Source: a virus. From it: 64,000 bases of DNA. Location: the IMG/VR virus record IMGVR_UViG_3300037484_000374, positions 1 through 64,000 of that record. One strand, given 5' to 3'. The position numbers and the translations under genes are program-made. The notes under the pieces are model-generated. The model was given only the letters and a program-made list of their open reading frames with translations, had not been told where the DNA came from and searched no databases. Positions 19,377 through 48,776 of the stretch are shown here, piece by piece. Numbering within the stretch: the first letter of the stretch is position 1; each line of letters opens with the position of its first letter.

Positions 19377-20048
19377 TCAACTATTTAATTTTGGATATGG
19401 TTTTATATCATATCGTAATTCTTTTCTGATCTCTTTTTTAAATTTCTTATCACCAATTATATAAACATATCTATGTTTAAGGGGTCTGTCTTTTAAATAG
19501 AAGTCATCACCGTATTTATCTTTAATTGCCTGTACTCTATTATCTACACCTCTGAACTCATCTGCTATGGTTTGGGAGTGTAAATGTTCTTTACCTTTAA
19601 TAACCCAATCAGTTCTTTTTTCAGACAGTCCACAATATAAAAAATTGGTGGCTTGATAAACATACCCTATGTGTTCTTGAGATGTATCAGAGTAACTAAT
19701 TATTATCCTTTTTTTAGGTAGCATTTTCAAACTTCTACCCACCAAAAAGCTGGCCTCATTTTTCCTGTTATATAATAGACATAACCTATTTAATTCAAGA
19801 ACATTGTTTTTATATTTATCACCAGCCAATCCACATCTTACATTATTTGTTGGTGGTGATCCATATGTTACAATTCCACATAACTCATTACCAACAAATA
19901 ATCCATATGAGTATGATATACTCGGCCATCTTTTTGCATAATGGATATTCATAATAAATGGCTCACAGTCTTGTCGAGATATCTCACCAACATCTTTTAC
20001 TGAGAGGTCGATTTCCCTGTCGAAGAAAGTATTAAGCATATCATTCAT
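19377..20048 (-). CDS. mom: Mom-family adenine-modifying GNAT enzyme
   Basis: HY...GIVTYG.P...ELNRL...NEASF...SL...IISYSD...HIGYVYQATNF.Y.G. Confidence 0.8.
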   Translation of the reverse strand: MNDMLNTFFDREIDLSVKDVGEISRQDCEPFIMNIHYAKRWPSISYSYGLFVGNELCGIVTYGSPPTNNVRCGLAGDKYKNNVLELNRLCLLYNRKNEASFLVGRSLKMLPKKRIIISYSDTSQEHIGYVYQATNFLYCGLSEKRTDWVIKGKEHLHSQTIADEFRGVDNRVQAIKDKYGDDFYLKDRPLKHRYVYIIGDKKFKKEIRKELRYDIKPYPKLNS

Positions 20049-20050
20049 TA

Positions 20051-20485
20051 TTATTCATCCTTTACAAAAACTTCTCTATCGTCACCTGAAATAACTGCTT
20101 CCTCGATCCAAGTATCTATTTCAGAACTGTCGTACATTTTTAGAGATTTTGTATCCCAATAGAAATGATCTATTGTTCCACATCTACCGCCCAATCTGTT
20201 TTTTACGATTTTATAATATACCTCGGACTTATATACCATCGCATCCTCATCTTTACCCATGATCATCATAAAATCTGCTGTAGCAGGTATTCCCATTGAA
20301 TTTTTAGTAAGTATACCGTTAGCATAGAACAAATGATCTGATGATACTTCTATATCAATACATTCATCCTCCTCAAGTTCTATAATCTCAACAATCTCAT
20401 CGTTATATGATAACTGTGATGCTGATTGTTCTGTTTTTAATAGCCCTTGTTCAATAACACTTAGTATATTTTTCTTATTACTCAT
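20051..20485 (-). CDS. gp41: Split-intein C-fragment (62 aa, 20300-20485) plus C-terminal extein of gp41 helicase
   Basis: CIDIEVSSDHLFYANGILTKN|SMGIPATADFM...VKNRLG. Confidence 0.92.
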   Translation of the reverse strand: MSNKKNILSVIEQGLLKTEQSASQLSYNDEIVEIIELEEDECIDIEVSSDHLFYANGILTKNSMGIPATADFMMIMGKDEDAMVYKSEVYYKIVKNRLGGRCGTIDHFYWDTKSLKMYDSSEIDTWIEEAVISGDDREVFVKDE

Positions 20486-20538
20486 ATATTATCCTCTACG
20501 AATTTAATGATCCTTACCTGTGACAATTGATTTTATAA

Positions 20539-21936
20539 TTATATTATATTCAATTTATCACCATTTATCAACCCATTTTCTATATTTTTTAATCCTTTAT
20601 CTGTAGGAAATTTATGTTCGGCACTACATATAATCTCTTTTCCAGATTTGGTTATTATCTTATATAATTTCTTTCTTTGCTTTTTAAATACTTTCTTAAC
20701 AACAACACCGTTTCTCGATCCTTTTATGATATCATTTTGTTTAATATTATTGATTGGTGTGTCGATATACTTTGAACCATCCCATTTTTTAACCAATGTA
20801 CTTGGGTGTAAACACTCCGCAATGCTGTTCATATCAACATCTATAAGAGATAAGAAAGTACCGCCACGGTTTAACTGGGATACTGATATTACAGGAAAAT
20901 CAAATTCAAGTCCTAATGCTCTGGCCTGTTCTGATATTTTCTTAACATCATTATACATCTGGCCTGTATCACCATATTCTGATTTCATAAGGTTGATATA
21001 GTCAAAATAAAATGCGTCTATTTTTATGCCCCTCATTTTCAGTTCCCGCAACCAAACCCTATAATCAGCCGTAGAAGCATTACCTGTTGGGAAGTTCTTA
21101 ATGAATAATTCTCCACGGGTTGGGCTTTTTTTCTTCTCAAATAGGGTTGTTAAAAGTCTTTCTTTTAATGACTTTCTTATATACATTCTATTGATATCCA
21201 AATTGGAATATATACTGTCAAACCTTTGTGCAAACATATCTTGAGACATCTCTAATGAAGCGAGGGCTATATTATGACCCTGTTCTACTTGTCTTGAAAT
21301 AATGTTTGCCATGATATTTGATTTGAACCCATGAATTTGGGCCACGAACATTGATAATGTAAAAGGGGGGAACCCACCATTAAGATACTCATCAAGTAGC
21401 GGATAATATGTAGGTACTTTACTATCGGTGGCTGTGAATATCCTTTTTAATCGCTCACCTAACTGCCCCCAATAATTCAGGCCAAGATCAATTACCATAT
21501 TTTTACATAGGGAATCTTCGATTATCTTTCGAATCTCTTGTATGTTACCACCTTCGGACACGACATCAACAGCCTTAACAAGACCTCTCTTGATTGCTCT
21601 ATCCTGTAAATAGGTATTGGATGTTTCCAGTAGCCAATCATAGTTTTTAACAATGTCAAATTCGGTGGAATCAATATCTCTGAAAAGAACTTCAACCGCT
21701 TCCCTGTTTTCAGCACTGATTTGGTTTAATATTATTTCTCTATCTGGAAGTGTGTTATATTTTTCAAAATTTATCTTGATCTTTTCAAACAGTTCGGTGT
21801 TGTGAATATCGTCAAAATAACCGGACTCAAACGCTGACGTAACTGTTGCCAGATAAGACTTATCGTTGAATAGACTCTTGAACAAGCACAGTAGAAAATA
21901 TTCCTCATTAACATCGAGAATGTTCTGTTTACTCAT
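20539..21936 (-). CDS. gp41: gp41/DnaB-like helicase N-extein plus split-intein N-fragment (91 aa, 20539-20814)
   Basis: GFKS, SLEMS, DYINLM, SQLNR, then IAE|CLHPSTLV...IICSAEHKF. Confidence 0.92.
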   Translation of the reverse strand: MSKQNILDVNEEYFLLCLFKSLFNDKSYLATVTSAFESGYFDDIHNTELFEKIKINFEKYNTLPDREIILNQISAENREAVEVLFRDIDSTEFDIVKNYDWLLETSNTYLQDRAIKRGLVKAVDVVSEGGNIQEIRKIIEDSLCKNMVIDLGLNYWGQLGERLKRIFTATDSKVPTYYPLLDEYLNGGFPPFTLSMFVAQIHGFKSNIMANIISRQVEQGHNIALASLEMSQDMFAQRFDSIYSNLDINRMYIRKSLKERLLTTLFEKKKSPTRGELFIKNFPTGNASTADYRVWLRELKMRGIKIDAFYFDYINLMKSEYGDTGQMYNDVKKISEQARALGLEFDFPVISVSQLNRGGTFLSLIDVDMNSIAECLHPSTLVKKWDGSKYIDTPINNIKQNDIIKGSRNGVVVKKVFKKQRKKLYKIITKSGKEIICSAEHKFPTDKGLKNIENGLINGDKLNII

Positions 21937-21962
21937 ATTTTTCCTCTTTTTATTTTATTATC

Positions 21963-21992
21963 ATTATACTATTGACAAGTAAGAATGTAAAC
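21963..21992 (-). promoter_or_regulatory. T4-early-like sigma70 promoter GTTTACA-N17-TATAAT (similar at 41585-41614, 45488-45516, 46437-46466)
   Basis: Motif and spacing recur upstream of replication genes. Confidence 0.65.
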
Positions 21993-22082
21993 CACGCAAC
22001 ATATAATTGTTGAGATAATTGACATACTTTGTATAATATGATACAATAAGTTGTATACTTTGTAAACTATGAGGAGAAATAA

Positions 22083-22769
22083 ATGAGAAATGTAATGGTC
22101 GTTGGTGATGTTCATGGTCAATTCTGTAAACTAAATGAACTCATTAACAAGAAACGTCCAGATATAATTTATGCCTGTGGTGACTTCGGTTACTGGCCTG
22201 AGATAAGTTATTTCAATATTAGTGGTATAAAACCCAAACAAACAAAAATATATTTCGCTGACGGAAACCACGAAAATCATGATGCCTTGACTACGTTGAG
22301 ATGTTTACACCCCCATGCCATGGCTCTGAAAACCCCTATTGAAGTCGCAAAGAACGTTTATTATTGTCCGAGAGGAACGATAACATACACTCCTGACGGT
22401 AGAAAGGTATTATGGATGGGTGGGGCATATAGTATTGATAAGCAATACAGAACCCCAGGATATGATTGGTTCCCTCAAGAGACAATAAAATGGTATGAGG
22501 TTGATAGGGTAGAGGAAGAAAAGATAGATATCCTTATCAGTCATACCTGTGCAAAAGAGAATCTTCATGAGATGCTAAGGCACAATAGTATAAAAGCACT
22601 TGACCCTTCTAATGGGTGTCTATCTAAGATACTTGAATGGACAAGACCAGACCTATGGTACTTTGGACATTGGCATTTTTGGAAAAAGGGGTATGTTGTT
22701 GAAACAGACACATACTGGACAACATTAGGATGTGACGGTCAAAATGGATGGTGGGAATGGTTAAAGTAG
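22083..22769 (+). CDS. Calcineurin-like metallophosphoesterase
   Basis: GDVHG, GDFG, DGNHE, SHT, FGHWH. Confidence 0.9.
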   Translation: MRNVMVVGDVHGQFCKLNELINKKRPDIIYACGDFGYWPEISYFNISGIKPKQTKIYFADGNHENHDALTTLRCLHPHAMALKTPIEVAKNVYYCPRGTITYTPDGRKVLWMGGAYSIDKQYRTPGYDWFPQETIKWYEVDRVEEEKIDILISHTCAKENLHEMLRHNSIKALDPSNGCLSKILEWTRPDLWYFGHWHFWKKGYVVETDTYWTTLGCDGQNGWWEWLK

Positions 22770-23046
22770 TTCATTGTAAAAAGAACCCTATGATGTTTTA
22801 ATTGGCCGACCATCAAAATGGGGGAACCCTTTTACTATAGGTAAGGATGGTACACGTTCAGAAGTTATTGAAATGTATATGGAATATATACTTAACTCTC
22901 CTGAGTTAATGGCGAGTTTACATGAACTCAAGGATAAACGGCTAGGATGCTGGTGTAAGCCAAAGATATGTCACGGAGATATTTTAGTTGACTTAGTTGA
23001 GAAACTATGTTATATTGATGATATAAAATTATTTTTCGAAGTATAA
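22757..23046 (+). pseudogene. DUF4326-family gene with a 1-nt frameshift near the start
   Basis: MVKVVHCKK / EPYDVLIGRPSKWGNPF...LGCWCKPKICHGDIL; one A short in the run at 22778-22782. Confidence 0.75.
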
Positions 23047-23057
23047 GGAGAGGAAAT

Positions 23058-23240
23058 ATGAATACACATCTCGTATATAAATGTAGGAATTGTAACAAAC
23101 ATTATCTGTGGATTGATATAAGGACTACAGCCGATAATATTAATGATGCTATTAAGATCATGGGTGACGCCCCATGTCCAACTTGTGGTGAGTATGATTG
23201 GATTTATGATCGACTTGGAAATTATGAAGAAGGTGTTTAA
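23058..23240 (+). CDS. Small zinc-finger protein
   Basis: CRNC...CPTC; strong RBS. Confidence 0.65.
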   Translation: MNTHLVYKCRNCNKHYLWIDIRTTADNINDAIKIMGDAPCPTCGEYDWIYDRLGNYEEGV

Positions 23241-23267
23241 GCATCTTGCGGTGTAGAGGAGAAGAAA

Positions 23268-24410
23268 ATGCCAGTAAAAATACAAATAAATAAAACTAAG
23301 GTTCCTATTAAAATATGGAACGATAATGTTGAGTCTTTGACTATAGATCAGGCAACCGTTATTGCCGACACTATGCCAGTAGTTTCTCATGTTGCATTGA
23401 TGCCAGATTGTCATTTGGGGGTGGGGATGCCGATTGGTGGGGTTGTTGTGTTGGATAATGCAATATGCCCTAACATGGTCGGGGCCGACATTGGTTGTGG
23501 TATGATGGCCGTTAAAACTAATATCACGGATGTTGATATTATGACCTTACGTGCTATTGTTCAACAAGTAAAACGTGATGTTCCTGTTGGGTTCAACAAG
23601 AGAAGTGAGTCTGTTGAATGGGAGGGGTTTGACCGAACACCGGATTTTGATATAATCCAACAAGAATTAGATAATTCCCGTGTATCTCTTGGTACGCTTG
23701 GGGGTGGAAATCACTTCCAAGAAATTCAGAAGGGTTCTGATGGGTTTATATGGTTCATGATTCATTCAGGTTCCCGTAACTTTGGTTATAAGATTGCTGA
23801 ACATTACCAGCGTATAGCTGTAGAGAAGGGTATAGTCTCAAATGGTAATAGGCAACTTGCATATTTTGATTTTAATAGCGATATTGGACAAGAGTATTTC
23901 CAAGCAATGAATTTTGCCATGGAGTTCGCTCAAGAGAACCGTAATGTTATGGCAAATTTCGTAAAGAAAGCGTTCACCGATGTATGTGAGTATGCGACTT
24001 TCGATAATGCAGTTAATATCCATCACAACTATGCCGAGGATATTGGTTATGGTCAAATTTTACACCGTAAGGGTGCTACGAAAGCAACCAAGGACACTAT
24101 TGGTATTATCCCAGGAAGTCAGGGATCATGCTCTTATATTGTAAAGGGTTTGGGTAACAAGGAATCATTCGAGTCCTGTTCTCATGGTGCTGGACGTTTA
24201 ATGTCTCGAACAAAAGCTAAGAAATTACTTGATCGAGATTCATGTGAACAGCAAATGAAGGATATGGGTCTTGAGTTACATCAGACCATGGGGTTGGATG
24301 AGGCTACGGCGGCATACAAGGACATTAAGTATGTTATGGAGTGTCAATCTGATCTGGTTGAAATTTTGGTTGAGTTAAAGCCTTATAAAATATCAGCGAT
24401 AAAGGGGTAA
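23268..24410 (+). CDS. rtcB: RtcB RNA ligase
   Basis: MPDCH.G, VGADIGCG, GTLGGGNHF, HSGSR, HHNY, HRKGAT, SHGAGR. Confidence 0.95.
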   Translation: MPVKIQINKTKVPIKIWNDNVESLTIDQATVIADTMPVVSHVALMPDCHLGVGMPIGGVVVLDNAICPNMVGADIGCGMMAVKTNITDVDIMTLRAIVQQVKRDVPVGFNKRSESVEWEGFDRTPDFDIIQQELDNSRVSLGTLGGGNHFQEIQKGSDGFIWFMIHSGSRNFGYKIAEHYQRIAVEKGIVSNGNRQLAYFDFNSDIGQEYFQAMNFAMEFAQENRNVMANFVKKAFTDVCEYATFDNAVNIHHNYAEDIGYGQILHRKGATKATKDTIGIIPGSQGSCSYIVKGLGNKESFESCSHGAGRLMSRTKAKKLLDRDSCEQQMKDMGLELHQTMGLDEATAAYKDIKYVMECQSDLVEILVELKPYKISAIKG

Positions 24411-24630
24411 ATTATGTTGGAATTTGTTCATACGGTAGGTATTTTTTATGCTGTCCCTCTCGGTTAAAACCCCACCCCTTGTGGGTAGGGATCTTGAATG
24501 TATATAATGGTTGGTGTATTCTATCATTGGTATAATGAAACACGATCACCACGTAGTTATTTCGAGTTGGTGTATATGACGTTGTTGTTCCAAATATGGT
24601 ATATTATAACCAAAAAAGGAGAGATGAAAA

Positions 24631-24825
24631 ATGAAAACTGTTGAGAAGAAGAAAATCTGTCCAAAATGTGCTGAAATGATGTCTGGAATGTTGCTTCTAA
24701 TGAAAGAAATACTAGAAACACTGGACAACCTAGGGCCGGTAAGACGTATGTCATCAACGGCTGTTGATGATTATTGGAGAGACTTTTTGAAATACAAGAA
24801 GAAAATTGAAAATATGCACAAATAG
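24631..24825 (+). CDS. Small hypothetical protein
   Basis: ORF with AGGAG RBS. Confidence 0.55.
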   Translation: MKTVEKKKICPKCAEMMSGMLLLMKEILETLDNLGPVRRMSSTAVDDYWRDFLKYKKKIENMHK

Positions 24826-24998
24826 GAGATTATTATGCTTGGTGGATTAACGACTTTTTTTCATTGAAAATCGACCCCCTGAAGAAATTGAAAATTTACT
24901 CAACACGGATGAAATTCCAAAATTGGAATTAGAGATCATCTTTGAATCTCTCAGTATGGACACCTGTTCATAGACTCAATAACATATAATCTTTGCCG

Positions 24999-25040
24999 AA
25001 CCCCCCCATGTGGATTAATTTCTACATGGGGGGTTTTTAT
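24999..25040 (+). terminator. Intrinsic terminator
   Basis: AACCCCCCCATGTGGA...TCTACATGGGGGGTTTTT hairpin with T tract. Confidence 0.8.
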
Positions 25041-25061
25041 TTGAAAATCTTAATCTTTTTA

Positions 25062-25069
25062 TATAAATA
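25062..25069 (+). promoter_or_regulatory. T4-type late promoter TATAAATA (also + strand 45524, 51403, 56064, 56985; - strand 2392, 13490, 33571)
   Basis: Exact octamer in intergenic gaps before late genes. Confidence 0.8.
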
Positions 25070-25100
25070 CTATTGAATCACTTTATAAAAGGAGAATAAA

Positions 25101-25352
25101 ATGGATAAGAAATATTGGCAAGCTGTTCTGAATAAGGTTATTGAGAACTTGACAAGTATGAAATGGTGGTATTTTGTAACGATACTCGCTGTGTCTACAA
25201 AATTAGTCCTAATGAGTTTGATGACCAGTGGTGAGTTTGTAACGTTAAATACAACTCTTCTAAGTATCATAGTCGGTATGAGAGAGATCATGAAAATCAG
25301 CAAGGTCAAGGCTTTGGTTGATCCAAAAGAGATTGAAAAAATTAAGTCATAA
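25101..25352 (+). CDS. Putative holin
   Basis: 83 aa, two hydrophobic segments, charged tail, first gene of the lysis cluster. Confidence 0.65.
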   Translation: MDKKYWQAVLNKVIENLTSMKWWYFVTILAVSTKLVLMSLMTSGEFVTLNTTLLSIIVGMREIMKISKVKALVDPKEIEKIKS

Positions 25353-25364
25353 GGGAGTAGTAAA

Positions 25365-25709
25365 ATGGATGTAGGAAATATGTGTGGCATGGGTCTGTTA
25401 GGTGGGGCTGTTTTTGGTGGTGGATTATTATTGGTCAACTCGTTAATGACCGGTGGTGGATGGAAAAAACTGCTTACTGATCTATACAAGAAAATTCAAA
25501 AAGACGGTGAAGAAAAGATTGCAGGTATCGCCCAGAAACAAACCAAGATCGAAGTTAAAATTAAGAAAGATGAAAAACTTTCAGAAAATAAGAAACAAAA
25601 GATAAAGGACATTGCTAGTAAAGCCTCAAAGGAAATTGATGATGTTCTCAAAGAAACCAATATTGAGATTATTCAAGATAGTATAGACACAGATTGGGGG
25701 GATTTATGA
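25365..25709 (+). CDS. Putative i-spanin (Rz-like)
   Basis: N-terminal TM helix plus coiled coil. Confidence 0.6.
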   Translation: MDVGNMCGMGLLGGAVFGGGLLLVNSLMTGGGWKKLLTDLYKKIQKDGEEKIAGIAQKQTKIEVKIKKDEKLSENKKQKIKDIASKASKEIDDVLKETNIEIIQDSIDTDWGDL

Positions 25710-26221
25710 AATCAATATGTAATATAATGATTGTAATGATGTTATTCATGGGTGCATGTGCGCCTAAACAGTTTGTTCCTTTTCAGCCACCTGAGTTGAC
25801 CATAGAAAATACAGCACCTTATGTTCTCGATATGACAACTATATCGAAACCCGAAAAGCTGATTCCAATATATGTTGATGAGAATATGAAACCGACAACC
25901 ATTGACAAGGCAAAGTTTGTTCTCTTAGCACCATCAGAATATGCCAAGATTGGTGCTCTTGTTAAGCTAGCGGAAACTTACAAGATGATTGCCATTGAAG
26001 AGGCAAGTTTTGTCAATATTCATATTGACACAATAAACAGTTTGAAAGAGTATGTTGCATTGGAAAGACAGAAAGCCATAGAGTATAGGAATCTGTGGAT
26101 GATGAGTGAAAATGCATACAGGCAAGAAGAATACAGACACAAGATGGATAACAGAATCAACAAGGCAACAATGTACCTCATTACAATCGGTTCTATTGTT
26201 CTGCTTGCTGTTGGATTATAA
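25706..26221 (+). CDS. Lipoprotein spanin with additional C-terminal TM helix
   Basis: MKSICN...LFMGAC lipobox; ends MYLITIGSIVLLAVGL. Confidence 0.6.
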   Translation: MKSICNIMIVMMLFMGACAPKQFVPFQPPELTIENTAPYVLDMTTISKPEKLIPIYVDENMKPTTIDKAKFVLLAPSEYAKIGALVKLAETYKMIAIEEASFVNIHIDTINSLKEYVALERQKAIEYRNLWMMSENAYRQEEYRHKMDNRINKATMYLITIGSIVLLAVGL

Positions 26222-26234
26222 ATAGGGTGAAATT

Positions 26235-26765
26235 ATGAGAGATTTAAATTCAGCAATCCCAGGAGCACCAAATTTTAAGTATAGAGAATTTGTAAAGTCA
26301 GATACAGCAATTCGATTGGGTATCGTTAATGAACCATCAGATGAAGAGTGGAGGTCAATTGAAAAGGTTGCTGTTAATATTTTACAACCTGTAAGAGAAA
26401 AGTTTGGTAGAATAGGGATTTTAAGTGGGTTTAGATGCTTAGAATTGAACAGAGAGATTAAAAGTTCTGATACATCTAATCACATAAAGGGTGAGGCTGT
26501 GGATTTTGAGCCCATAGACACCAATGTGAGTATGCTGGATATTGTTCTATTTATATATGATGAGTTGGAATTTAGAACCTGTATTTGCGAGTATTTCCCC
26601 GATGGATGGATACATTGTGATTATCGATCAGGTGGAAACATTTGTTCATTGAAATTGAAGGATTCAGATCATGATTATGAAGAGATTTCTCTTGATGATC
26701 TAATGGATTTGTATGATAATGGTCATGATAATGAAATATTGAATATTGATTTTAGTGAGTTATAA
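26235..26765 (+). CDS. Peptidase M15A endolysin
   Basis: SGFRC.ELN...S.H..GEAVD...WIH. Confidence 0.85.
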   Translation: MRDLNSAIPGAPNFKYREFVKSDTAIRLGIVNEPSDEEWRSIEKVAVNILQPVREKFGRIGILSGFRCLELNREIKSSDTSNHIKGEAVDFEPIDTNVSMLDIVLFIYDELEFRTCICEYFPDGWIHCDYRSGGNICSLKLKDSDHDYEEISLDDLMDLYDNGHDNEILNIDFSEL

Positions 26766-27039
26766 ATGCCAAATAGTCACATACATGAATATGTAAAAGA
26801 ACAAATTGAAAATGAAGGATATAAACTTTTAGGTAAGGAATATAAAAATGTATTTACTAAATTAAAAATAAAATGTCCAGAGGGGCATGAATATAATGAC
26901 AATGTAAAAAGAAGAGATAAAAATAAAGAAACGGCAACGTGAAGAATTAGGTATTGATCTTATGATAATCCATGAGGAATTTTGGGTTATCAACAAAAGA
27001 AAATACTTGAATAAAATTATGAAGTTTGTAGAATTATAA
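26766..27039 (+). pseudogene. Internally deleted zinc-repeat endonuclease remnant
   Basis: HEYVKEQIENEGYKLL...CPEGHEY fused to a frameshifted family C-terminus (GIDLMII.EEFW). Confidence 0.85.
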
Positions 27040-27061
27040 AAATTAACTTCGGTGAAATAAT

Positions 27062-27808
27062 ATGAGATTAAAACAATACTTAACAGAAAAGACTTTTAAT
27101 ATTAATAAGGATGTTGATTATATCTTTAACAAATATTTCAAGAAACTCTATATAGCTATTCTTCTGGATAAATGGGATGGAAAATTTGAAACAAAAACTT
27201 TCATGTCATCTGATTTACCATCAAAGGAAGCACAGGATGCGAGTAAACTAAACCCTATAAAAATTGTCATCACAACCGCAGACACTGGTAACTTTTATAT
27301 GTCCTTAAATCATTATATTCAGCTAAGTCCGAATACCAATGTTCTTAATATTTTGAGGAATTACGGTTCTATTAAAGACGCAACACTTATGGTTACTGAT
27401 AGATCGAAGATTATAGCGTTTAAAAATGAACTCAATGGTGTTAAGATGAAAGACTCTATATACCATGAATTATCACACTGGCTAGATGATACTTTTCACA
27501 ATTTTTTTCTTTCAAAAACGGTTAAACTGTCTCTCGAAACAGGTAAATATTTACAAAAACAAGGTAAAAATAACGTTAATGCATCAAAAATTGAGATTAA
27601 TGCCCAAATTCATACAATTAAACAATTGAAAAGAGTTTTCAGTAAGAAATGGGATAATCTATCATTCATGGATATGCTTGCTTTAGATGGTAGCTTTAGT
27701 TGGGTGTGGGGTGATCTTAAAGGTAGAGAGTTTGATATTTGGAAAAAAGATATATTAAAGAGAATGGCAAGAGAAAAACTTTTGGGTAAAAGGATGACGG
27801 TAAAGTGA
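27062..27808 (+). CDS. CTS-leader protein with HExxH zincin-like motif
   Basis: MRLKQYLTE leader; YHELSHWLD...EINA. Confidence 0.7.
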   Translation: MRLKQYLTEKTFNINKDVDYIFNKYFKKLYIAILLDKWDGKFETKTFMSSDLPSKEAQDASKLNPIKIVITTADTGNFYMSLNHYIQLSPNTNVLNILRNYGSIKDATLMVTDRSKIIAFKNELNGVKMKDSIYHELSHWLDDTFHNFFLSKTVKLSLETGKYLQKQGKNNVNASKIEINAQIHTIKQLKRVFSKKWDNLSFMDMLALDGSFSWVWGDLKGREFDIWKKDILKRMAREKLLGKRMTVK

Positions 27809-28458
27809 GACTAAAACAATACCTTACAGAAGAAAGCATAGACTCTGATGATTGGGGTGCTACAGGAAAAGCGTTTGAAAAGACGTTCCTGAGAGCATGT
27901 GATCTGTTGGGGTTGAAGTATGTTCTTAATGGTGTTAATGCCCGTGGATGGGACATGAAGCCAGTTGGTGATGGTTGGGAGAGAATCATATCAGATAAGG
28001 AAGTTAACATAAAGGTGTCCAGTACTAAATGGTTGTTTGGTTCTACAGAACTGACAACGATTGTTCCATGGGATAATATACCTGATGATTACAATGAAGA
28101 TTTGACAATTAAGAGAATCAAAAGAATATTACATAAAATTGATATTCCTCATACTGTTTTTCTTAAACCAAAAGATAAAAATGTTCAACAGAGTATAGTA
28201 GATGGTGTTAGGAGTGAAGATATCCCAGCACTTGAAAAAATATTCGTCAAGAAAAATTTCTATTCTGATAAATTAGGGAACACTTTTGATGTTCGTATCT
28301 TAAAAAGAGATAATAGAGTAACATCAATAGCAGTCAATAAAAAAGGAAAGGTTTTTATGAGATCAGAACCACCAAGAAAAGTTGGTGGTTCCATGTTCGT
28401 AACATTTAGAACACCTACAGCTAAGTTGGATGGTGGAGATCGCAAGGTTAAAAGCTAA
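27805..28458 (+). CDS. CTS-leader protein, possible PD-(D/E)xK-like nuclease fold
   Basis: MRLKQYLTE leader; GKAFE...WD...EVNIK. Confidence 0.55.
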   Translation: MRLKQYLTEESIDSDDWGATGKAFEKTFLRACDLLGLKYVLNGVNARGWDMKPVGDGWERIISDKEVNIKVSSTKWLFGSTELTTIVPWDNIPDDYNEDLTIKRIKRILHKIDIPHTVFLKPKDKNVQQSIVDGVRSEDIPALEKIFVKKNFYSDKLGNTFDVRILKRDNRVTSIAVNKKGKVFMRSEPPRKVGGSMFVTFRTPTAKLDGGDRKVKS

Positions 28459-29162
28459 TGAAATTTAAACAATACATAAACGAAAGTATTAATGACAAAG
28501 GAATCTTGAAAGCCTGTTTTATGGCTGGACAACCTGGGGCCGGTAAGACGTTTGTCATTAATAAAATAACTGGTGGGTCTGTACAGCCGAAAGTTATAAA
28601 CACAGACACATGGGCTGAGTTTTATAAAGCATATGGTGATAAAGAGTGGGATAAATATGGTAATAAAATAAAAACCCTTACAAAGAACCAATTATCTCTT
28701 TATCTTAATTCAATGCTACCATTGTGGGTAGATGGTACATCTTCTCTCCCAAATGCTGTTGTTAGGCGTAGAGGGATTGTTGAGTCAATAGGGTATGATA
28801 CAGCGTTTATATGGGTTGATACATCTCTCGAAACTGCCATAGAAAGACAACAGTTACGTGATAGGAAAGTTAATCCAGATGAGATTACTAAAATATATAA
28901 TAATATCCAACCTTTAAAGGATTACTATAAACACCATTTTAGAAACTTTATTGTTATTGATAACAATAAGGGAGAGTTTACAGATAGTGTGGTGTTGGGG
29001 GCATATAGAAAAATGAGTGGGTGGTTTACTGAGCCTCTTAAAAACCCAATTGGAACGATGTTGGTTGATAGAATGACAGAGAAGGGTGATAAATATCTTA
29101 CAGATAGCGAATACACAATGCCTCAGTTAAAAAACTTGGTAGAAGGGTGGTATAGACATTGA
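28458..29162 (+). CDS. CTS-leader P-loop kinase (zeta-toxin/AAA_33-like)
   Basis: MKFKQYINE leader; FMAGQPGAGKT, INTD, VDGT, R...R.R lid. Confidence 0.8.
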   Translation: MKFKQYINESINDKGILKACFMAGQPGAGKTFVINKITGGSVQPKVINTDTWAEFYKAYGDKEWDKYGNKIKTLTKNQLSLYLNSMLPLWVDGTSSLPNAVVRRRGIVESIGYDTAFIWVDTSLETAIERQQLRDRKVNPDEITKIYNNIQPLKDYYKHHFRNFIVIDNNKGEFTDSVVLGAYRKMSGWFTEPLKNPIGTMLVDRMTEKGDKYLTDSEYTMPQLKNLVEGWYRH

Positions 29163-29935
29163 AATTTAAAAACTATTTATTAAATGAAGGTCGGTCACGC
29201 TACATGGACGAGCAAGGAGCTGTTGATCATGTTCTATTGAATTGCGGGAAAGCCCTTACAGCCGCTAAGAAAGGTGATGTCATATATCGTGGGAAAAAGA
29301 CTAATTTTCTTTTTGATTATACTGATCCATCTAAAGGTAAGCCGAGGGTAAGCAGAAACACATCCAATCATATGACTTTGCTGATGGACAACTTACCATC
29401 ATGGAAAGGATGGCCGAAGCGAAGCAGAAGTCTTATATGTACGACAAGGGCTGCAAAGACAGTTGCTTATGGTAAAACATATGTTGTTTTACCGGAAGAT
29501 AATGTTAAGATGGGTGTTTGTTATGGTTCAGATATATGGGTATCATTCCCGTATGCTGGCATTAACTCATGGCGTGATTCTGTAAATGATTTTAATAAAT
29601 ACCTTAAAATTTTTGTCAATGATGAAAGCTGGCCATCTTTAAAGAAAGGGTTGAATATACAGGTGGATGATATTCAACTTATAGACTATGATGCTATAGA
29701 CTATGGTGCTCCTGAAATTATCAAGGATTGGAAACATCTTGGATCAACAAGTGAGCCTAATCTTACATTGTATGATCATCTCAATAAAATTCTTGATCCA
29801 AAGAAAAACAAATTCTTATTAAAGAAAGCAGGTGATGTGTTACCCAATGAAGAAAGAGAGGTATGGGTGGGTGGGCCTTGTGTTCTTATAAATTTAAGTA
29901 CGTTCTATCAGCTTATAGATGAACGTAAATTTTAA
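29159..29935 (+). CDS. CTS-leader protein, possible ADP-ribosyltransferase fold
   Basis: KFKNYLLNE leader; IYRG...SLICTT...YG..Y.V.P...EREVW. Confidence 0.6.
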   Translation: MKFKNYLLNEGRSRYMDEQGAVDHVLLNCGKALTAAKKGDVIYRGKKTNFLFDYTDPSKGKPRVSRNTSNHMTLLMDNLPSWKGWPKRSRSLICTTRAAKTVAYGKTYVVLPEDNVKMGVCYGSDIWVSFPYAGINSWRDSVNDFNKYLKIFVNDESWPSLKKGLNIQVDDIQLIDYDAIDYGAPEIIKDWKHLGSTSEPNLTLYDHLNKILDPKKNKFLLKKAGDVLPNEEREVWVGGPCVLINLSTFYQLIDERKF

Positions 29936-29955
29936 ACAAAAAAAGGGGGGGGGTT

Positions 29956-30270
29956 ATGAAATTAAGGGATTATTTAAATGAAGTGAAGTTACCACCAAAG
30001 ACATCATATGTTAAATGGAGTTCTATCTTTGATAATACAAGCAACAAATATGATGTTGAGTTGTTTATGAAGGCACTCAAGGCCGCCGGTGCAAGTAAGG
30101 TATGGGATGACAATCAATTTGGATGGTCAAACCAACCAAAGGTTGTAATGTTCACTGGTCTTGATGATAAGAAAGCAGAGGATGCTCTGGATAAACTACC
30201 TGTATTTAAAAAATGGGGTGCTGTTGTTCATGATGCAAATGATGATTGGAAAGAATACGGTAAGAAATAA
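29956..30270 (+). CDS. CTS-leader small protein
   Basis: MKLRDYLNE. Confidence 0.7.
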   Translation: MKLRDYLNEVKLPPKTSYVKWSSIFDNTSNKYDVELFMKALKAAGASKVWDDNQFGWSNQPKVVMFTGLDDKKAEDALDKLPVFKKWGAVVHDANDDWKEYGKK

Positions 30271-30283
30271 AAGGGGGATTATT

Positions 30284-30595
30284 ATGGACTATAGTAAATA
30301 TTTAATAGAGTCAAAGGTAAGTCCGAGTGATAGAAATATCATTCTCACTATTCTACTCACCGGAAAGACAGGTGGTTTTGAGATGGCAAGTGTTAACAGC
30401 CATATTCAGACCATGAAAAGGGGTAATAAATTCATAGTAAAATACCCGAAGAACTCTGCCTCTTTAGCTTTAGAACTAGCTGATATTCTTGATCTTTTAG
30501 ATATATCCTTTACCGTTGGTCTTAGCGGTGGACTTTCTATTATTACATTTGAAGACCAAAAAGAACTGTCCAAGGCCGTAGTTAATAAAAGGTAA
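30284..30595 (+). CDS. CTS-leader small protein (start corrected)
   Basis: MDYSKYLIE after AGGGGG RBS. Confidence 0.7.
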   Translation: MDYSKYLIESKVSPSDRNIILTILLTGKTGGFEMASVNSHIQTMKRGNKFIVKYPKNSASLALELADILDLLDISFTVGLSGGLSIITFEDQKELSKAVVNKR

Positions 30596-30598
30596 ATA

Positions 30599-31174
30599 AT
30601 GGAAATATCTGGAAGAGTTAGAAATATTATCAAGAAATCGAAAGTAGAGCTTATCGATATACTTGAGAAATATAGCTGGGACGTTACCCTGTCAAAGCTG
30701 ATTATGTTACTTTCCCTTGTGTATTTTCCGGGGTCACAGGTAAAGTTTGAACCTATTGAGGAGGAAATACCATCTGATCAGGGTTTTTTCCCAATAGTAG
30801 AGATATATCTAAACGGTAATATAGTTGTGTATGTCAATAAAATTCTTGTGAAATACGTTACAATGTACCCAAAGAAAAGGAAATACTGGAATTCTTGGAA
30901 TGATATTGAGAACAATAGATTTTATACCGAACTTGCCGAGGCTATCCAGAAAGGTGAGATTTACAGAGCCAATCTTAAAAGGGTAGGGGATATCATACCG
31001 TTTCTTGATTCTTCGATGACAGTTCAGCAACACCTTGATTGGGGTGTTGAAGATTATATTTATGATGGAACTCCTGAGATGGAAAATCTATTTGATGTTT
31101 TCTTAGGAAAAGATAGTCCGATTACTAAGCTATTCAAAGATGGTGTTAAAAAGTTAAAGAAGAAAGCTGATTAA
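30599..31174 (+). CDS. Hypothetical protein
   Basis: Last ORF of the operon. Confidence 0.6.
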   Translation: MEISGRVRNIIKKSKVELIDILEKYSWDVTLSKLIMLLSLVYFPGSQVKFEPIEEEIPSDQGFFPIVEIYLNGNIVVYVNKILVKYVTMYPKKRKYWNSWNDIENNRFYTELAEAIQKGEIYRANLKRVGDIIPFLDSSMTVQQHLDWGVEDYIYDGTPEMENLFDVFLGKDSPITKLFKDGVKKLKKKAD

Positions 31175-32064
31175 TCAGCTTCTTTCAATTCGATATTATA
31201 GTTGTCACCCTCTGACAAGCTGACCTCATATATTTTAAAACCCTCGAAATTATAGTGTCTGAATCTAATATCAGCATGGTCTTTTAAGTATTTTACCTGA
31301 TCGCAAATATCCCAAATTTTTGAACCCACCTTACCGTCATCCTTCCTCAATGTTCTGCCTATTGATTGTAGGACTCTGATCTTGCTTTTTGAAGGACTTC
31401 CCATAATGAGGGTATCGAGACTCTTAATATTTACACCTACTTGGAAGATTGCGTATGTGGCGATCAGGATGATATTCTTTGACTCGTTTGTTTTCTTTCT
31501 CCACTGTTCTCTTATCTCTGCATCATCTTTACCGCTGATAAACTCTATGGTTCTATCTTTTAATTCTCTACTTTTAAGTAGAATTTCTTTCAGTACAGCC
31601 CCTTCTTTTTCAACTTTATCTACCAAAATAAGAACACTGGAATTTGTTTCATTGAGGATGTGTTTTATCAGACCAACACGGTATGGATTATTAAAGCATA
31701 TATCCTTGATCGTATTGTAGTCACCCTTGATCTTTTGTTTGTAATTGATGGTTACCATATTAACATCACATCCCGCAATGTAGCCGTGCTCATGGAGCCA
31801 TTTAGAGCCATATTCTTTAATTACTGGCCCAATGAATGATTTAACAGTCAGTTCATCGAGGCGAGATGGTGGCATCGTACCGGTAAACCCAAATCTGTAT
31901 TTTGCATTGATGGCGTGTTCAAGGACTGACTCTAAAATAGCCGCTTTGCAACCATGACAATTCGAAACAACCACACCATTTGCCGTATAATTGTTATTTT
32001 TGTCTATGTGTAGGTTATATACTTTTTTTGGTTTTTTTATTATTTTTCTTTTTATAAGTTTCAT
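31171..32064 (-). CDS. uvsW: Split-intein C-fragment (35 aa, 31960-32064) plus UvsW C-extein
   Basis: VYNLHIDKNNNYTANGVVVSN|CHG...GFTGT...GVNI...QSIGR.LR. Confidence 0.92.
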   Translation of the reverse strand: MKLIKRKIIKKPKKVYNLHIDKNNNYTANGVVVSNCHGCKAAILESVLEHAINAKYRFGFTGTMPPSRLDELTVKSFIGPVIKEYGSKWLHEHGYIAGCDVNMVTINYKQKIKGDYNTIKDICFNNPYRVGLIKHILNETNSSVLILVDKVEKEGAVLKEILLKSRELKDRTIEFISGKDDAEIREQWRKKTNESKNIILIATYAIFQVGVNIKSLDTLIMGSPSKSKIRVLQSIGRTLRKDDGKVGSKIWDICDQVKYLKDHADIRFRHYNFEGFKIYEVSLSEGDNYNIELKEAD

Positions 32065-32099
32065 ATGTCTTCTTTAGGTTATTAAATATATGATCGCTA

Positions 32100-32128
32100 A
32101 ATATATCATTATTTTTGTAAAATGTCAA
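32100..32128 (-). promoter_or_regulatory. Sigma70-like promoter between the UvsW halves
   Basis: TTGACA-N17-TATATT with TG extension; the -35 overlaps the TGA stop of the N-half. Confidence 0.6.
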
Positions 32129-33099
32129 GGGTTATTGCTAATTATATCATCATTTTCATCTAATTCATCTGCCCTTACCCATCCTCTATTTTTTGTAAGT
32201 ATCTTGTGGTTACCGGTAACACACAATACAGTACCATCATCAAATATTAACTCATACATTTCTTCTTCTGTTGATATAGTCAGGTTAATATATAAATTTT
32301 TAACAATATCATTTTCATATTTTTTATTTTTTTCATTATAGGATATTACAATATCACCGATCATAATATCTTTTATTTTTACTAAACCTTTACTGGTTAA
32401 AATCTCTGTATTGCCATCTAAACATTCATCAACAATGACAGATTGAAATCTAAGCATTTCTTTCTTTCTGCGTTGTAGTGATTGCCATGTTGAAATAACA
32501 ATTGGTTTATCAAGCTGTTTTGTTTTTGCGTTCAGCTTCCCTATCAACTTTTCATCCATTCCATACTCTATAAGATCAGATTTGAATTGTTCTATAAGGG
32601 AAAGATTAGGGACAATAATTATAACATTGTTGGTTATCTTATTCTCAAGAAGGGTTTTGGTAATATATGCAATCATTACCGACTTTCCACTAGCTGTCGC
32701 TGATCGAATAATTCCCTTAGAAGTCCTCAGAGCCGTTCTAATGCAATCTTCCTGATAGTTGTAGGGGTAGTATAGTAAGTCCCATTTTGGATCAATGGCG
32801 ATACCTGTGAACGTTTTCTTGACATCAACCTCAACCTCGTATATGAGATCGGGCCAATCTTTGATTGTGTATTTGATTACGTCTAATAACAGACCGTAAG
32901 GGAATGTTCTCTTAGGTTTGCTGAATTTACTTACTTTCCCATTCCATGCACCATTTTTGAATTTTGGCATGAAATAATAGTTATCCACAAATTCTGAAAG
33001 AAATTCCATCACTCCTTTCAGGTAGTCGTAGTTACCAGTATCAATCCTTATGTTTAATGGGTCATGATATTTGAATATTATTGTTGGGTTAGCCGACAT
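32125..33099 (-). CDS. uvsW: UvsW SF2 helicase N-extein plus split-intein N-fragment (99 aa, 32125-32424)
   Basis: ATASGKS, STWQS, VIVDE|CLDGNTEI...VTGNHKI...GWVRADEL. Confidence 0.92.
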   Translation of the reverse strand: MSANPTIIFKYHDPLNIRIDTGNYDYLKGVMEFLSEFVDNYYFMPKFKNGAWNGKVSKFSKPKRTFPYGLLLDVIKYTIKDWPDLIYEVEVDVKKTFTGIAIDPKWDLLYYPYNYQEDCIRTALRTSKGIIRSATASGKSVMIAYITKTLLENKITNNVIIIVPNLSLIEQFKSDLIEYGMDEKLIGKLNAKTKQLDKPIVISTWQSLQRRKKEMLRFQSVIVDECLDGNTEILTSKGLVKIKDIMIGDIVISYNEKNKKYENDIVKNLYINLTISTEEEMYELIFDDGTVLCVTGNHKILTKNRGWVRADELDENDDIISNNP

Positions 33100-33555: not shown

Positions 33556-33590
33556 ATTTTGTTTCCGTTGTATTTATATAATAAAATACA

Positions 33591-34435: not shown

Positions 34436-34669
34436 CTATTCTGTTTTGTCTGATTCTTTCTTCATAAGAAGATATTCAAACTCTGAGAAGCAGAACATAT
34501 TCACAACACCGGCATCAACATTTTTAATAATCTGATACACAACGTATGTTATCTCTTCAATGACAACAATGGTGTTTGGTGGTGACACAAAGGATGCATT
34601 GATTTCTTCATAGAAAATCTGATTTGTTTTGGCATTAATATATCTTATAATTGTCATTTTATTCTCCAA
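34436..34669 (-). CDS. Hypothetical protein
   Basis: Coupled ORF. Confidence 0.55.
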   Translation of the reverse strand: MENKMTIIRYINAKTNQIFYEEINASFVSPPNTIVVIEEITYVVYQIIKNVDAGVVNMFCFSEFEYLLMKKESDKTE

Positions 34670-35528
34670 AAAATAAACTCATAGTCTCATGAGTGTTGTT
34701 TAGGATATACTCTCTGTTCATCGGCACCAATAATATATTCACTTTACTCAAGAAAAATTTATCATATTGTTTATCAAAATCAACTTCTACCTGAAACTCC
34801 TTTGGCCAATGGTGATAAGATACGGTGTCTATGTCGTATGGATTTTTCTTTATATATACAACCTTTACTTTATCACCCTCGTTAATTACCTCGTATTTAT
34901 TTTCTACTCCATGGTGTTTTAGTAGGAACCTGTAATTCCACACACCCTTTACATGCCAAGGTGTTCTTTTTATTTTCTCACCTGTACCGAGATATTTTTC
35001 AAGGTTCTTGACACCAATATTTGAACTGATATCCTCTATCTTGGCGTTTTTCATTACTCTTTTATATGTTGCTATTATATCCCTTATTTCAGTATCGTTA
35101 GCCCCTCGAAGGATCATTCCCAGAATATTTTTAAGAGCGTTCCTGAACACTGTAGGTGTCTCTGAGCGTATAATTTCGAGGCCGGTGACTTCTATCTTAT
35201 CACAATTAAAACCCTCTTCATTTACAACATTATAACCATACTTCTTTTTCTTGACAAACAGAATAGATTTACATACGATTTCCTGTTTAAATCCGATCTT
35301 GAAATCTTCAACAGCTGAGTTGTATGATATCTTCTGTGTTTCGTTGTACGCTCGATCTTCAACATATGATTCTATGATCTTTGATATTCTCAAAACAAGA
35401 TCACACTTTTCCATATCAGTGTGTTTATTCCACTGTTCGGGGGTGACACCTCTATTATATAGGAAATCCCGAACCCCTATAAAAAGCGAGTCAGTATCGA
35501 TGTAATAGATATAGTCATTCTCTTTCAT
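34659..35528 (-). CDS. gp43: Family B DNA polymerase C-terminal subunit (motif C, thumb)
   Basis: YIDTDS, KKKY, TGLEIIRSETP, WHVKG. Confidence 0.92.
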   Translation of the reverse strand: MKENDYIYYIDTDSLFIGVRDFLYNRGVTPEQWNKHTDMEKCDLVLRISKIIESYVEDRAYNETQKISYNSAVEDFKIGFKQEIVCKSILFVKKKKYGYNVVNEEGFNCDKIEVTGLEIIRSETPTVFRNALKNILGMILRGANDTEIRDIIATYKRVMKNAKIEDISSNIGVKNLEKYLGTGEKIKRTPWHVKGVWNYRFLLKHHGVENKYEVINEGDKVKVVYIKKNPYDIDTVSYHHWPKEFQVEVDFDKQYDKFFLSKVNILLVPMNREYILNNTHETMSLFFGE

Positions 35529-46535: not shown

Positions 46536-48776
46536 GTGGCTATCAAAAACTTCGTATTAGACACCAACGTAATAATTTCAAGTAAGGACGCTATAAAGAC
46601 AATTATGAACGGAAACGATGGCGGTGAAGCAAATAATATATTCATACCATATACGGTTTTGGAGGAATTAGACTGTCTTAAAATGAATACAAAACTCAGA
46701 CCAATGGTGTATGAGGCATTTGAACAATTAAAAGAGTATAAAGATCATATCAAATTTATAGGTAATAGAGAAAAGAAAACACCGGATAATAAAATACTGG
46801 ATGAAATTCGTGATGCCGAACTTGAACTTAATTTAGGCGATGAGAATACAATATTCTTAACAAATGATATCATGCTACAGATAAAAGCAGAGGCCGAGGG
46901 TATCAATCCACAGGAATTCAAAGATTCAAAACCATATGAATCCGAGAGTCAACAATGTGATGGCTTTGTAAACGTTGATGAGGGTGAAAAGTTTTTTCCG
47001 AACTGTTTCTACTGGCAAGATGGAAGGTTGATGTTTAATGGAGTAAAAGAAGTACACACTGTACCTGATCATGCACCATGGAAGATAACACCTAAAAGTT
47101 ATTACCAAAATGCCGCTATTGATCTGATGAAAAATGATGAAATTAACCTCGTTACGATTCAGTCAAGGGCCGGTCTTGGTAAAGCACAACCATTAGATGC
47201 CAAAATATTAACACCTAATGGATGGAAAAAAATGGGTGATTTACAAGTTGGTGATATGGTTATAAATTCACAAGGAGAACCGACAAAGGTTTTAACAATA
47301 CACCCACAAGGAGAAAAGGAAATATATAGAGTATTATTTAATGATAATAGTAGTACAGAATGTTGTGATGATCATTTATGGTTTGTTAGAAAAGAATATC
47401 ATAAATACCAAGTAAAAAAATTAAGAGATATAAAAGATAATCTATATAATGAAAAACGAAAAAGATTGAATTGGTTTATACCGACAGTATCACCAATAAA
47501 ATTCCAAAAAAAACCATTACCAATAAAACCATACTTGATGGGGGTTTTATTGGGTGATGGTGGAATGACAACAAGTAATGTAAGTATAACAACAGTAGAT
47601 AAAGAAATAATAGATCATTGTAGTGATATATTACCAGATGGGTTATATATCAAACATATATGTGAACACCAATATCATATTAACATGCTTGATAGAAAAA
47701 TTGGCGGTAAAAAAGATATTTTTACAAATATTATTAACAAAATACTATATGAATTAAAATTATTTAAACTGAAATCACATGAAAAATTTATACCAGTTGA
47801 TTATTTATATTCATCTATAGATGATAGGGTACAAATACTCAGAGGATTGATGGATACAGATAGTGGTATTCTTAAAGATAACAGAGTTGAATATCATACT
47901 TCTTCATCAAAATTAAGAGATGGTGTTATTTTTTTGGTGAGATCACTTGGAGGTAGGGCATATTTTAATAAAAAAACACCATATTATATCTATAATGGGA
48001 TGAAAAAACAAGGTAAGGAAAGCTATACTGTTAGAATAACATTACCATCTGATATTAACCCATTTTTCTTAAAAAGAAAGGTTAATATATATAATGGTTA
48101 TAAGAAATATCCACCATCAAGAGGAATAAAAGAAATAAAATATATTGGTAATAAAGAAGCACAATGTATCACGGTTGATTCAGATGACCATATGTATATC
48201 ACAGATGATTTTATCGTCACCCATAATTCATATATATCACTGGCCACGGCATTGGAACAGACATTCGAGAAAAAGAAATATGAGAAGATATACATCTTTA
48301 AAAATATAGTAAATATTGGACAGGGGTTGGGTTTCCTTCCAGGAAGTCTTGAGGATAAGATAGAACCATACACCAGATATATGGTATCATTAATTCAAAA
48401 ACTCAGTGGTGTCAGAAAATTGAGCGAGAGAATTATGGATGCTAATGGGGTTATTAATCCACATTACATCGAGATTCTTCCTCTGACATTTATCAGGGGT
48501 ATGAACATTGAAGATGCATTTGTAATCATCGATGAGACACAGAACATTTCTCGACAAGAAATGAGAGCACTTCTGACAAGAATGTGCGGTAATGTTAAGG
48601 TTTGTTGCATCGGGGATACGTCACAGGTCGATGCTATGTTTCTCAATGAAATGAATAACGCTCTTAACTGGACTGTTAAATTATGTAAAGGCCAAGAACA
48701 CTATGGTCATATAACCTTGAAAGGTAATAAATCAAGAGGCCCGATCACAGACATGGTTCTTAAAGTAGGATTATAA
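46536..48776 (+). CDS. phoH: PIN-PhoH protein containing an intein
   Basis: VLDTNV PIN start; RAGLGK|intein|S; GFLPG, RGMNI, IIDETQN, GDTSQVD. Confidence 0.92.
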   Translation: MAIKNFVLDTNVIISSKDAIKTIMNGNDGGEANNIFIPYTVLEELDCLKMNTKLRPMVYEAFEQLKEYKDHIKFIGNREKKTPDNKILDEIRDAELELNLGDENTIFLTNDIMLQIKAEAEGINPQEFKDSKPYESESQQCDGFVNVDEGEKFFPNCFYWQDGRLMFNGVKEVHTVPDHAPWKITPKSYYQNAAIDLMKNDEINLVTIQSRAGLGKAQPLDAKILTPNGWKKMGDLQVGDMVINSQGEPTKVLTIHPQGEKEIYRVLFNDNSSTECCDDHLWFVRKEYHKYQVKKLRDIKDNLYNEKRKRLNWFIPTVSPIKFQKKPLPIKPYLMGVLLGDGGMTTSNVSITTVDKEIIDHCSDILPDGLYIKHICEHQYHINMLDRKIGGKKDIFTNIINKILYELKLFKLKSHEKFIPVDYLYSSIDDRVQILRGLMDTDSGILKDNRVEYHTSSSKLRDGVIFLVRSLGGRAYFNKKTPYYIYNGMKKQGKESYTVRITLPSDINPFFLKRKVNIYNGYKKYPPSRGIKEIKYIGNKEAQCITVDSDDHMYITDDFIVTHNSYISLATALEQTFEKKKYEKIYIFKNIVNIGQGLGFLPGSLEDKIEPYTRYMVSLIQKLSGVRKLSERIMDANGVINPHYIEILPLTFIRGMNIEDAFVIIDETQNISRQEMRALLTRMCGNVKVCCIGDTSQVDAMFLNEMNNALNWTVKLCKGQEHYGHITLKGNKSRGPITDMVLKVGL
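47184..48227 (+). mobile_element. Ala1 class 3 intein with LAGLIDADG endonuclease (348 aa)
   Basis: AQPLDAK start; DHLW, AQCITV, IVTHN|S; GVLLGDG and RGLMDTD. Confidence 0.9.

Follow-up and report, generated by a model that had tools for sequence, protein, structure and literature searches.

Opposite charge polarity of two unrelated split inteins in the gp41 and UvsW helicase genes of a phage genome is probably inherited from separate lineages

Introduction

Split inteins in phages have been described in "fractured genes", in which a free-standing homing endonuclease lies between the two halves of a split intein, although the gp41-7 locus is endonuclease-less, and both charge-polarity classes of split inteins were described in the same study (Dassa 2009, PMC2677866). 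The present study concerns the first 64 kb (the window) of the IMG/VR virus record IMGVR_UViG_3300037484_000374, a metagenome-derived contig of 170,951 bp with an estimated completeness of 71%. Two helicase genes in the window, gp41 and uvsW, are each broken into two open reading frames (ORFs) that carry the N-terminal half (IntN) and the C-terminal half (IntC) of an intein, and the two inteins have opposite charge polarity.

It is established that electrostatic forces steer the association of split-intein halves (PMC2677866; Beyer/Iwai, 10.1101/546465). A charge zipper was shown for gp41-1 with a polarity opposite to that of NpuDnaE, and an NpuDnaE IntN with swapped strand charges still spliced the wild-type IntC, indicating that a charge swap alone gave no orthogonality (10.1101/546465). 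Fifteen split inteins are mutually orthogonal in vivo, and an orthogonal set for one-pot assembly consists of gp41-1, gp41-8, NrdJ-1, and IMPDH-1 together with SspGyrB; gp41-1 and gp41-8 within this set have the same polarity, and gp41-1 was used with NrdJ-1, which has the opposite polarity, as an orthogonal pair (Pinto 2020, PMC7090010). The original prediction for the window was that mirror-image charge makes its two split inteins a built-in orthogonal pair. The analysis reported here indicates that they are very probably independent, unrelated, naturally split class-1 inteins whose opposite polarity was inherited from two lineages that share a genome by chance.

Results

Two Helicase Genes Are Split by Inteins

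The window has a G+C content of ~34% and its replication genes are T4-like. Searches of the phage collection at the DNA level, with the two loci as queries, returned short helicase matches only and no close cultured relative. Each helicase is encoded by two adjacent ORFs on the minus strand, as the original prediction had described, with an intein half at the end of the first ORF and at the start of the second: gp41 by an N-half of 465 aa (20539-21936) and a C-half of 144 aa (20051-20485), and UvsW by an N-half of 324 aa (32125-33099) and a C-half of 297 aa (31171-32064). In both genes, the exteins meet where the unsplit T4 homologues have neighboring residues.

The gp41 N-extein (20815-21936, minus strand as are all parts of the two loci) comprises residues 1-374 of a DnaB-like replicative helicase (Pfam DnaB_C, E 2e-18) and ends in ...NSIAE. 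It aligns with residues 7-374 of T4 gp41 (8DUE/8DTP), which places the junction at ...SDIAE/S374 (T4 E373/S374; the slash marks the insertion point). The gp41 IntN (20539-20814, 91 aa and stop codon) starts with Cys375, immediately past the last T4-aligned residue. A Pfam Intein_splicing segment lies beside DnaB_C, the IntN matches the structure of the gp41-1 intein (6QAZ, E 3.5e-12), and its block B has the form S-x-x-H (..CSAEH..), aligned with CSEEH of gp41-1. Sequence reading of the 53-nt spacer (20486-20538) revealed a GAGGA ribosome-binding site ahead of an ATG and no endonuclease ORF. The gp41 IntC (20300-20485, 62 aa) ends in ...ILTKN, a terminal Asn followed by Ser+1 (...TKN/S), and its residues 30-62 align with residues 96-128 of gp41-1 (E 5e-6). 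The C-extein of 82 aa (20051-20299, including the stop codon), delimited with split C-half homologues, starts with SMGIPATADF, where ESh36, a cultured Shigella phage, and T4 have SAGLPATADF. The gp41 intein shares with gp41-1 the helicase host, the HINT fold family, the split point, the basic IntN and acidic IntC strands, and Ser+1. However, it is inserted 21 residues further downstream (gp41-1 follows ...SGY/C), carries a penultimate Lys instead of His and ~27 extra residues at the N-terminus of IntC, and has no endonuclease gene between its halves.

The UvsW N-extein (32425-33099, residues 1-225; Pfam UvsW_N, ResIII, and DEAD) ends in ...VIVDE, the first half of helicase motif II (DExH), and aligns with residues 6-235 of T4 UvsW (1RIF/2OCA, DEC/H). 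Directly after the last T4-aligned residue, the UvsW IntN (32125-32424, 99 aa and stop codon; Pfam Intein_splicing, PT-HINT, and Hint) begins with Cys226, and its block B reads TGNH. Its top match among solved structures is the NrdJ-1 intein (8UBS, E 2e-5 over ~40 residues), followed by DnaE-type inteins. Separate halves score 24-31 bits against PF14890, which is below the cut-off, and the UvsW halves read through score 44.2 bits, which is above it. The 60-nt spacer (32065-32124) contains no endonuclease ORF. The UvsW IntC (31960-32064, 35 aa) ends in ...VVVSN, a terminal Asn followed by Cys+1 (...VSN/C), and its 35-aa layout is shared by 37 distinct homologues in IMG/VR. The C-extein (31171-31959, including the stop codon; Pfam Helicase_C) starts with CHGCK... 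and aligns with residues 232-468 of T4 UvsW (2OCA), so that the gene is broken within motif II, at DE/CH. An acidic IntN, a basic 35-aa IntC, and Cys+1 are features that the UvsW intein has in common with NrdJ-1 (8UBS) and cyanobacterial DnaE inteins (Npu DnaE). It differs from them in its host gene, in its site within DE/CH of a superfamily-2 helicase, and in the replacement of the block-F His by Asn in the subclade found here; the similarity is distant.

Both loci resemble the fractured genes of Dassa 2009 (PMC2677866) in having adjacent half-genes on the same strand that encode phage DNA-metabolism enzymes, with putative expression signals for each half. They lack a free-standing endonuclease, having 53- and 60-nt spacers instead, as is the case for gp41-7, and the eight host enzymes listed in that study do not include UvsW. 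A promoter scan identified the best sigma70-like match of the region at the UvsW spacer (TTGACA-17-TATATT, 32128 to 32100, minus strand, 11/12 positions with TG), where the IntN stop codon falls within the -35 box, and a second match at the gp41 spacer (TTGATA-17-TATAAT, 20543-20571, minus strand, ending at 20543). A late-type TATAAATA is present at 33571, upstream of the UvsW-N operon. All of these calls are consensus matches alone in AT-rich DNA; they suggest that the halves of gp41 and UvsW may be transcribed separately.

The IntN halves of gp41 and UvsW are 21% identical to each other (E 0.21), and judged by their sequences the two inteins are unrelated beyond the fold.

Charge of the Four Intein Halves

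A recount of the charged residues reproduced the earlier hand counts exactly for all four halves. The gp41 IntN contains 20 Lys/Arg and 8 Asp/Glu residues (net +12) and its IntC 4 and 13 (net -9); the UvsW IntN contains 11 and 19 (net -8) and its IntC 9 and 1 (net +8). The halves are thus charge-complementary within each pair, in agreement with the published mechanism. Much of the charge is packed into stretches of 15 residues, which hold +8 in the gp41 IntN (residues 38-52), -8 in the gp41 IntC (residues 27-41), -6 in the UvsW IntN, and the entire +8 of the UvsW IntC (its first 15 residues). These charge-rich stretches align with the interacting strands that form the charge zipper in the solved gp41-1 intein. 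Among same-length windows of the ORFs of this genome, the fraction at least as extreme was 0.018 for the gp41 IntN, 0.053 for the gp41 IntC, 0.17 for the UvsW IntN, and 0.011 for the UvsW IntC. Overall, the net charges of the four halves are unusual but not extraordinary.

Polarity Follows Intein Lineage

The gp41 intein belongs to a lineage for which 53 homologous split C-halves were aligned from the protein database and 218 stretches were confirmed in IMG/VR. All 15 out of 15 IMG/VR loci that have the same insertion site (..E/C ... TKN/S) and contain both halves show the same polarity, with an IntN charge of +4 to +13 and an IntC core charge of -3 to -10. Most of the gp41 relatives retain a gap of ~0.9-1.3 kb between the halves. 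Among 50,697 phage records, the IntN type of this lineage is carried by ESh36 only; its gp41 intein has charges of +9/-7 (IntN/IntC) and an intervening ORF between the halves, and a search of ESh36 for a UvsW-type intein found none.

Relatives of the UvsW N-half were identified with intein-specific patterns in 229 IMG/VR stretches, yielding 37 distinct split pairs. The IntN is negative in 31 and the IntC positive in 21 out of 37 pairs; 20 out of 37 combine a negative IntN with a positive IntC and two have the reversed signs. Across the pairs, a more negative IntN tends to go with a more positive IntC (Spearman -0.52, p 0.001, uncorrected for phylogeny), which fits cognate complementarity. In the nearest relatives of the UvsW intein the complementarity is carried by the IntN instead (-14/+2), and an independent contig (L086) that is 99% identical over the UvsW N-half has the same layout and identical charges. 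A gap of ~0.9-1.3 kb separates the halves in 31 out of 37 relatives.

The UvsW DE/CH element is also found in Salmonella S16-like phages and in Proteus phage PM2, where the intein lineage, the insertion site, and the sign (negative IntN, positive IntC) are the same as in the window and the IntN identity is 62%. The complete genome of Salmonella phage S16 has a UvsW intein with charges of -7/+4, differs from the locus described here in that a 291-aa ORF is kept between the halves, and contained no gp41-type split intein when searched. Likewise, a gp41-family intein was found in none of the 21 IMG/VR records with the UvsW-site element that were searched; the weak gp41-family matches in these records, where they could be placed, lie on the UvsW intein itself or on other genes, and all score below ESh36. 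Each of the two sign patterns therefore also occurs where the other intein is absent, since ESh36 (+9/-7) and S16 (-7/+4) each lack the partner.

The fractured uvsW gene of S16 corresponds to gp114, gp114.1, and gp115 (L084, NC_020416.1 104626-107352), with the split intein at DE/CH and the 291-aa ORF intervening. In the S16 record, gp114 and gp115 are labelled only "DNA helicase" and gp114.1 only "hypothetical protein".

Split Inteins of the Same Polarity Share Genomes and Genes

Three split inteins are present in the complete 160-kb phage record G029 (direct terminal repeats, 100% complete; loci L013, L180, L190, and L192), located in gp41 (+13/-8), topoisomerase II (+11/-8), and a class II-like ribonucleotide reductase (-4/+3). 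Two strongly charged pairs with a positive IntN and a negative IntC, those of gp41 and topoisomerase II, therefore occur together in this phage. Two further records each contain three split inteins with mixed or weak polarities (G030 and G032).

Two contigs encode gp41 in three pieces (L021, 2-3294, and L027, 127-3252), with two tandem gp41-family split inteins inserted 12 residues apart. The middle ORF consists of the IntC of the first intein, a 12-residue extein, and the IntN of the second intein (2287-2700 in L027, 138 aa). The tandem inteins in L021 have charges of +9/-7 and +7/-7, and the layout of L027 is identical. Since the tandem inteins share the charge sign, they must discriminate without help from it.

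Further Inteins and Neighboring Genes

The whole 171-kb record was scanned for further inteins with PF14890, a gp41-family hidden Markov model (HMM) built in this study, and a C-terminal motif scan. Two contiguous inteins bring the total in the record to four, and none of the three scans found a third split intein. One contiguous intein of ~340 aa, detected with the gp41-family HMM and confirmed with Pfam, lies in a PIN-PhoH protein of 746 aa (46536-48773, plus strand), carries a LAGLIDADG homing endonuclease, and ends in ...VTHN/S. The other is a full-size intein (GHPP/C ... TGN/C) in the prohead protease (Peptidase_S77, gp21-like), which is encoded outside the window (G000:C1:161886-163583, minus strand; also L003, 1081-2763).

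The match of an ORF at 34659-35528 (minus strand) to a family-B DNA polymerase is confined to the C-terminal third (positions 570-840 in the 856-position profile of PHROG 262), which would fit a split polymerase gene. Directly downstream of the gp41 C-half, an ORF at 19377-20048 (minus strand) matches a PHROG annotated as "Mom-like DNA modification protein" (E 6e-53) and has a weak homing-endonuclease match.

Discussion

The data suggest a model in which each of the two fractured genes has lost an intervening homing-endonuclease gene. The gp41 helicase would be made as an N-extein-IntN and an IntC-C-extein polypeptide, the basic IntN strand would meet the acidic IntC strand in a zipper of the gp41-1 type, and trans-splicing would restore ...IAE-SMG.... 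UvsW would be made likewise, with an acidic IntN and a basic IntC (the polarity of DnaE and NrdJ-1), and splicing would rebuild motif II as DE-CH. Correct pairing of the four halves is most likely due to deep sequence divergence, with charge as a minor help at most. It is plausible that like-charge repulsion of the cross-pairs makes a minor contribution, and there is no sign of selection for it or of a need for it. That the two inteins do not cross-react is something we infer.

The original prediction went further and proposed that mirror polarity was selected in this genome to block gp41/UvsW chimeras, as cognate halves attract and cross-pairs repel each other. The signs do make both cross-pairs like-charged, electrostatic steering is an established part of split-intein association (PMC2677866; 10.1101/546465), and the UvsW IntC, with +8, has the highest positive charge among the 37 distinct relatives, so that local reinforcement is conceivable. 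Such a selected device nevertheless appears very unlikely. Each polarity is found in relatives without the other intein (ESh36 and S16 as well as many IMG/VR loci), and when explanation of polarity entirely by lineage was examined in both lineages, polarity tracked lineage and not co-occurrence. The expected anti-correlation of polarity among co-resident split inteins is contradicted by the strongly charged same-polarity inteins that occur together in G029 and even within single gp41 genes. Furthermore, gp41-1 and gp41-8 are used jointly as orthogonal inteins despite their shared polarity (PMC7090010), the strand-charge swap in NpuDnaE did not by itself create orthogonality (10.1101/546465), and the IntN halves of the two inteins have just 21% identity. 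That a single one of the four halves ranks first among 37 is statistically weak, and it is highly improbable that selection to avoid mispairing with the gp41 halves of the same genome drove the UvsW IntC to the maximum of its lineage. The idea of reinforcement through the UvsW IntC was dropped as unsupported, involving one genome and one of four halves, with nearest relatives at -14/+2.

A different concern is that gp41, uvsW, or both are remnants in decay, with halves that fail to splice and a helicase that has lost its function or works as a non-covalent complex of two chains. Several observations weigh against a simple reading of the loci as two active inteins with inherited polarity. The penultimate IntC residues, Lys in gp41 and Ser in UvsW, are non-canonical, so that activity has to be inferred from conservation; the UvsW IntC carries Asn at the block-F position where most relatives have His. 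Net charge is a crude proxy, given that the whole IntN of gp41-1 proper is near-neutral despite its basic strand, and many IMG/VR contigs are fragmentary, which makes the absence of a partner intein firm only for S16 and ESh36 (both complete) and for the 99%-complete record G005. A penultimate His is common but not universal among inteins; Npu DnaE also ends in ASN. Ser, Ala, Lys, and Glu are all found at this position across the UvsW lineage, and the Lys of gp41 is kept across the whole site lineage, where the TKN/S ending includes that of the cultured phage ESh36. Cys1, the block B His, the terminal Asn, and the +1 Ser or Cys are all intact, and all ORFs are open, each with a start codon of its own, and are served by a ribosome-binding site. 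The UvsW layout and charges recur in the independent contig L086, and gp41 is essential in T4-like phages. Decay is consequently given little probability, and both loci appear to be genuine split inteins that are probably active. The record is a metagenome-derived contig, so an assembly or sequencing artefact that broke contiguous mini-inteins by a false stop codon or a frameshift was also considered. Its probability is practically negligible: the halves are separated not by a single stop codon but by 53-60 nt of non-coding sequence with a start codon and a ribosome-binding site, and the same split occurs at the same place in dozens of independent contigs and in cultured phages.

The preferred explanation thus remains the chance co-residence of two independently inherited split inteins. 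The second part of the original prediction was that the two could be a useful orthogonal tool pair, but it is not novel, as a pair of opposite polarity, gp41-1 with NrdJ-1, is already in use for orthogonal ligation (PMC7090010). The idea itself and a comparable tool pair were thus known from previous studies (PMC2677866; 10.1101/546465; PMC7090010). The pair described here would be a candidate tool pair with the predicted junctions IAE/SMG and VDE/CHG. The large lineage of split inteins at DE/CH of UvsW is of modest novelty; a literature search on UvsW and inteins, judged mainly by title and abstract, found no paper that describes a UvsW intein, and none is included in Edgell 2010.

A selected orthogonality code, if true, would have offered an easy rule for designing multiplexed protein ligation and would have meant that selfish elements residing in one genome shape one another. 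The evidence indicates the opposite: split inteins of like and of unlike polarity are freely combined in phages, and each polarity is inherited. The UvsW DE/CH lineage, the gp41 TKN/S lineage with its penultimate Lys, and the gp41 genes in three pieces may serve as ligation tools and as natural tests of pairing specificity.

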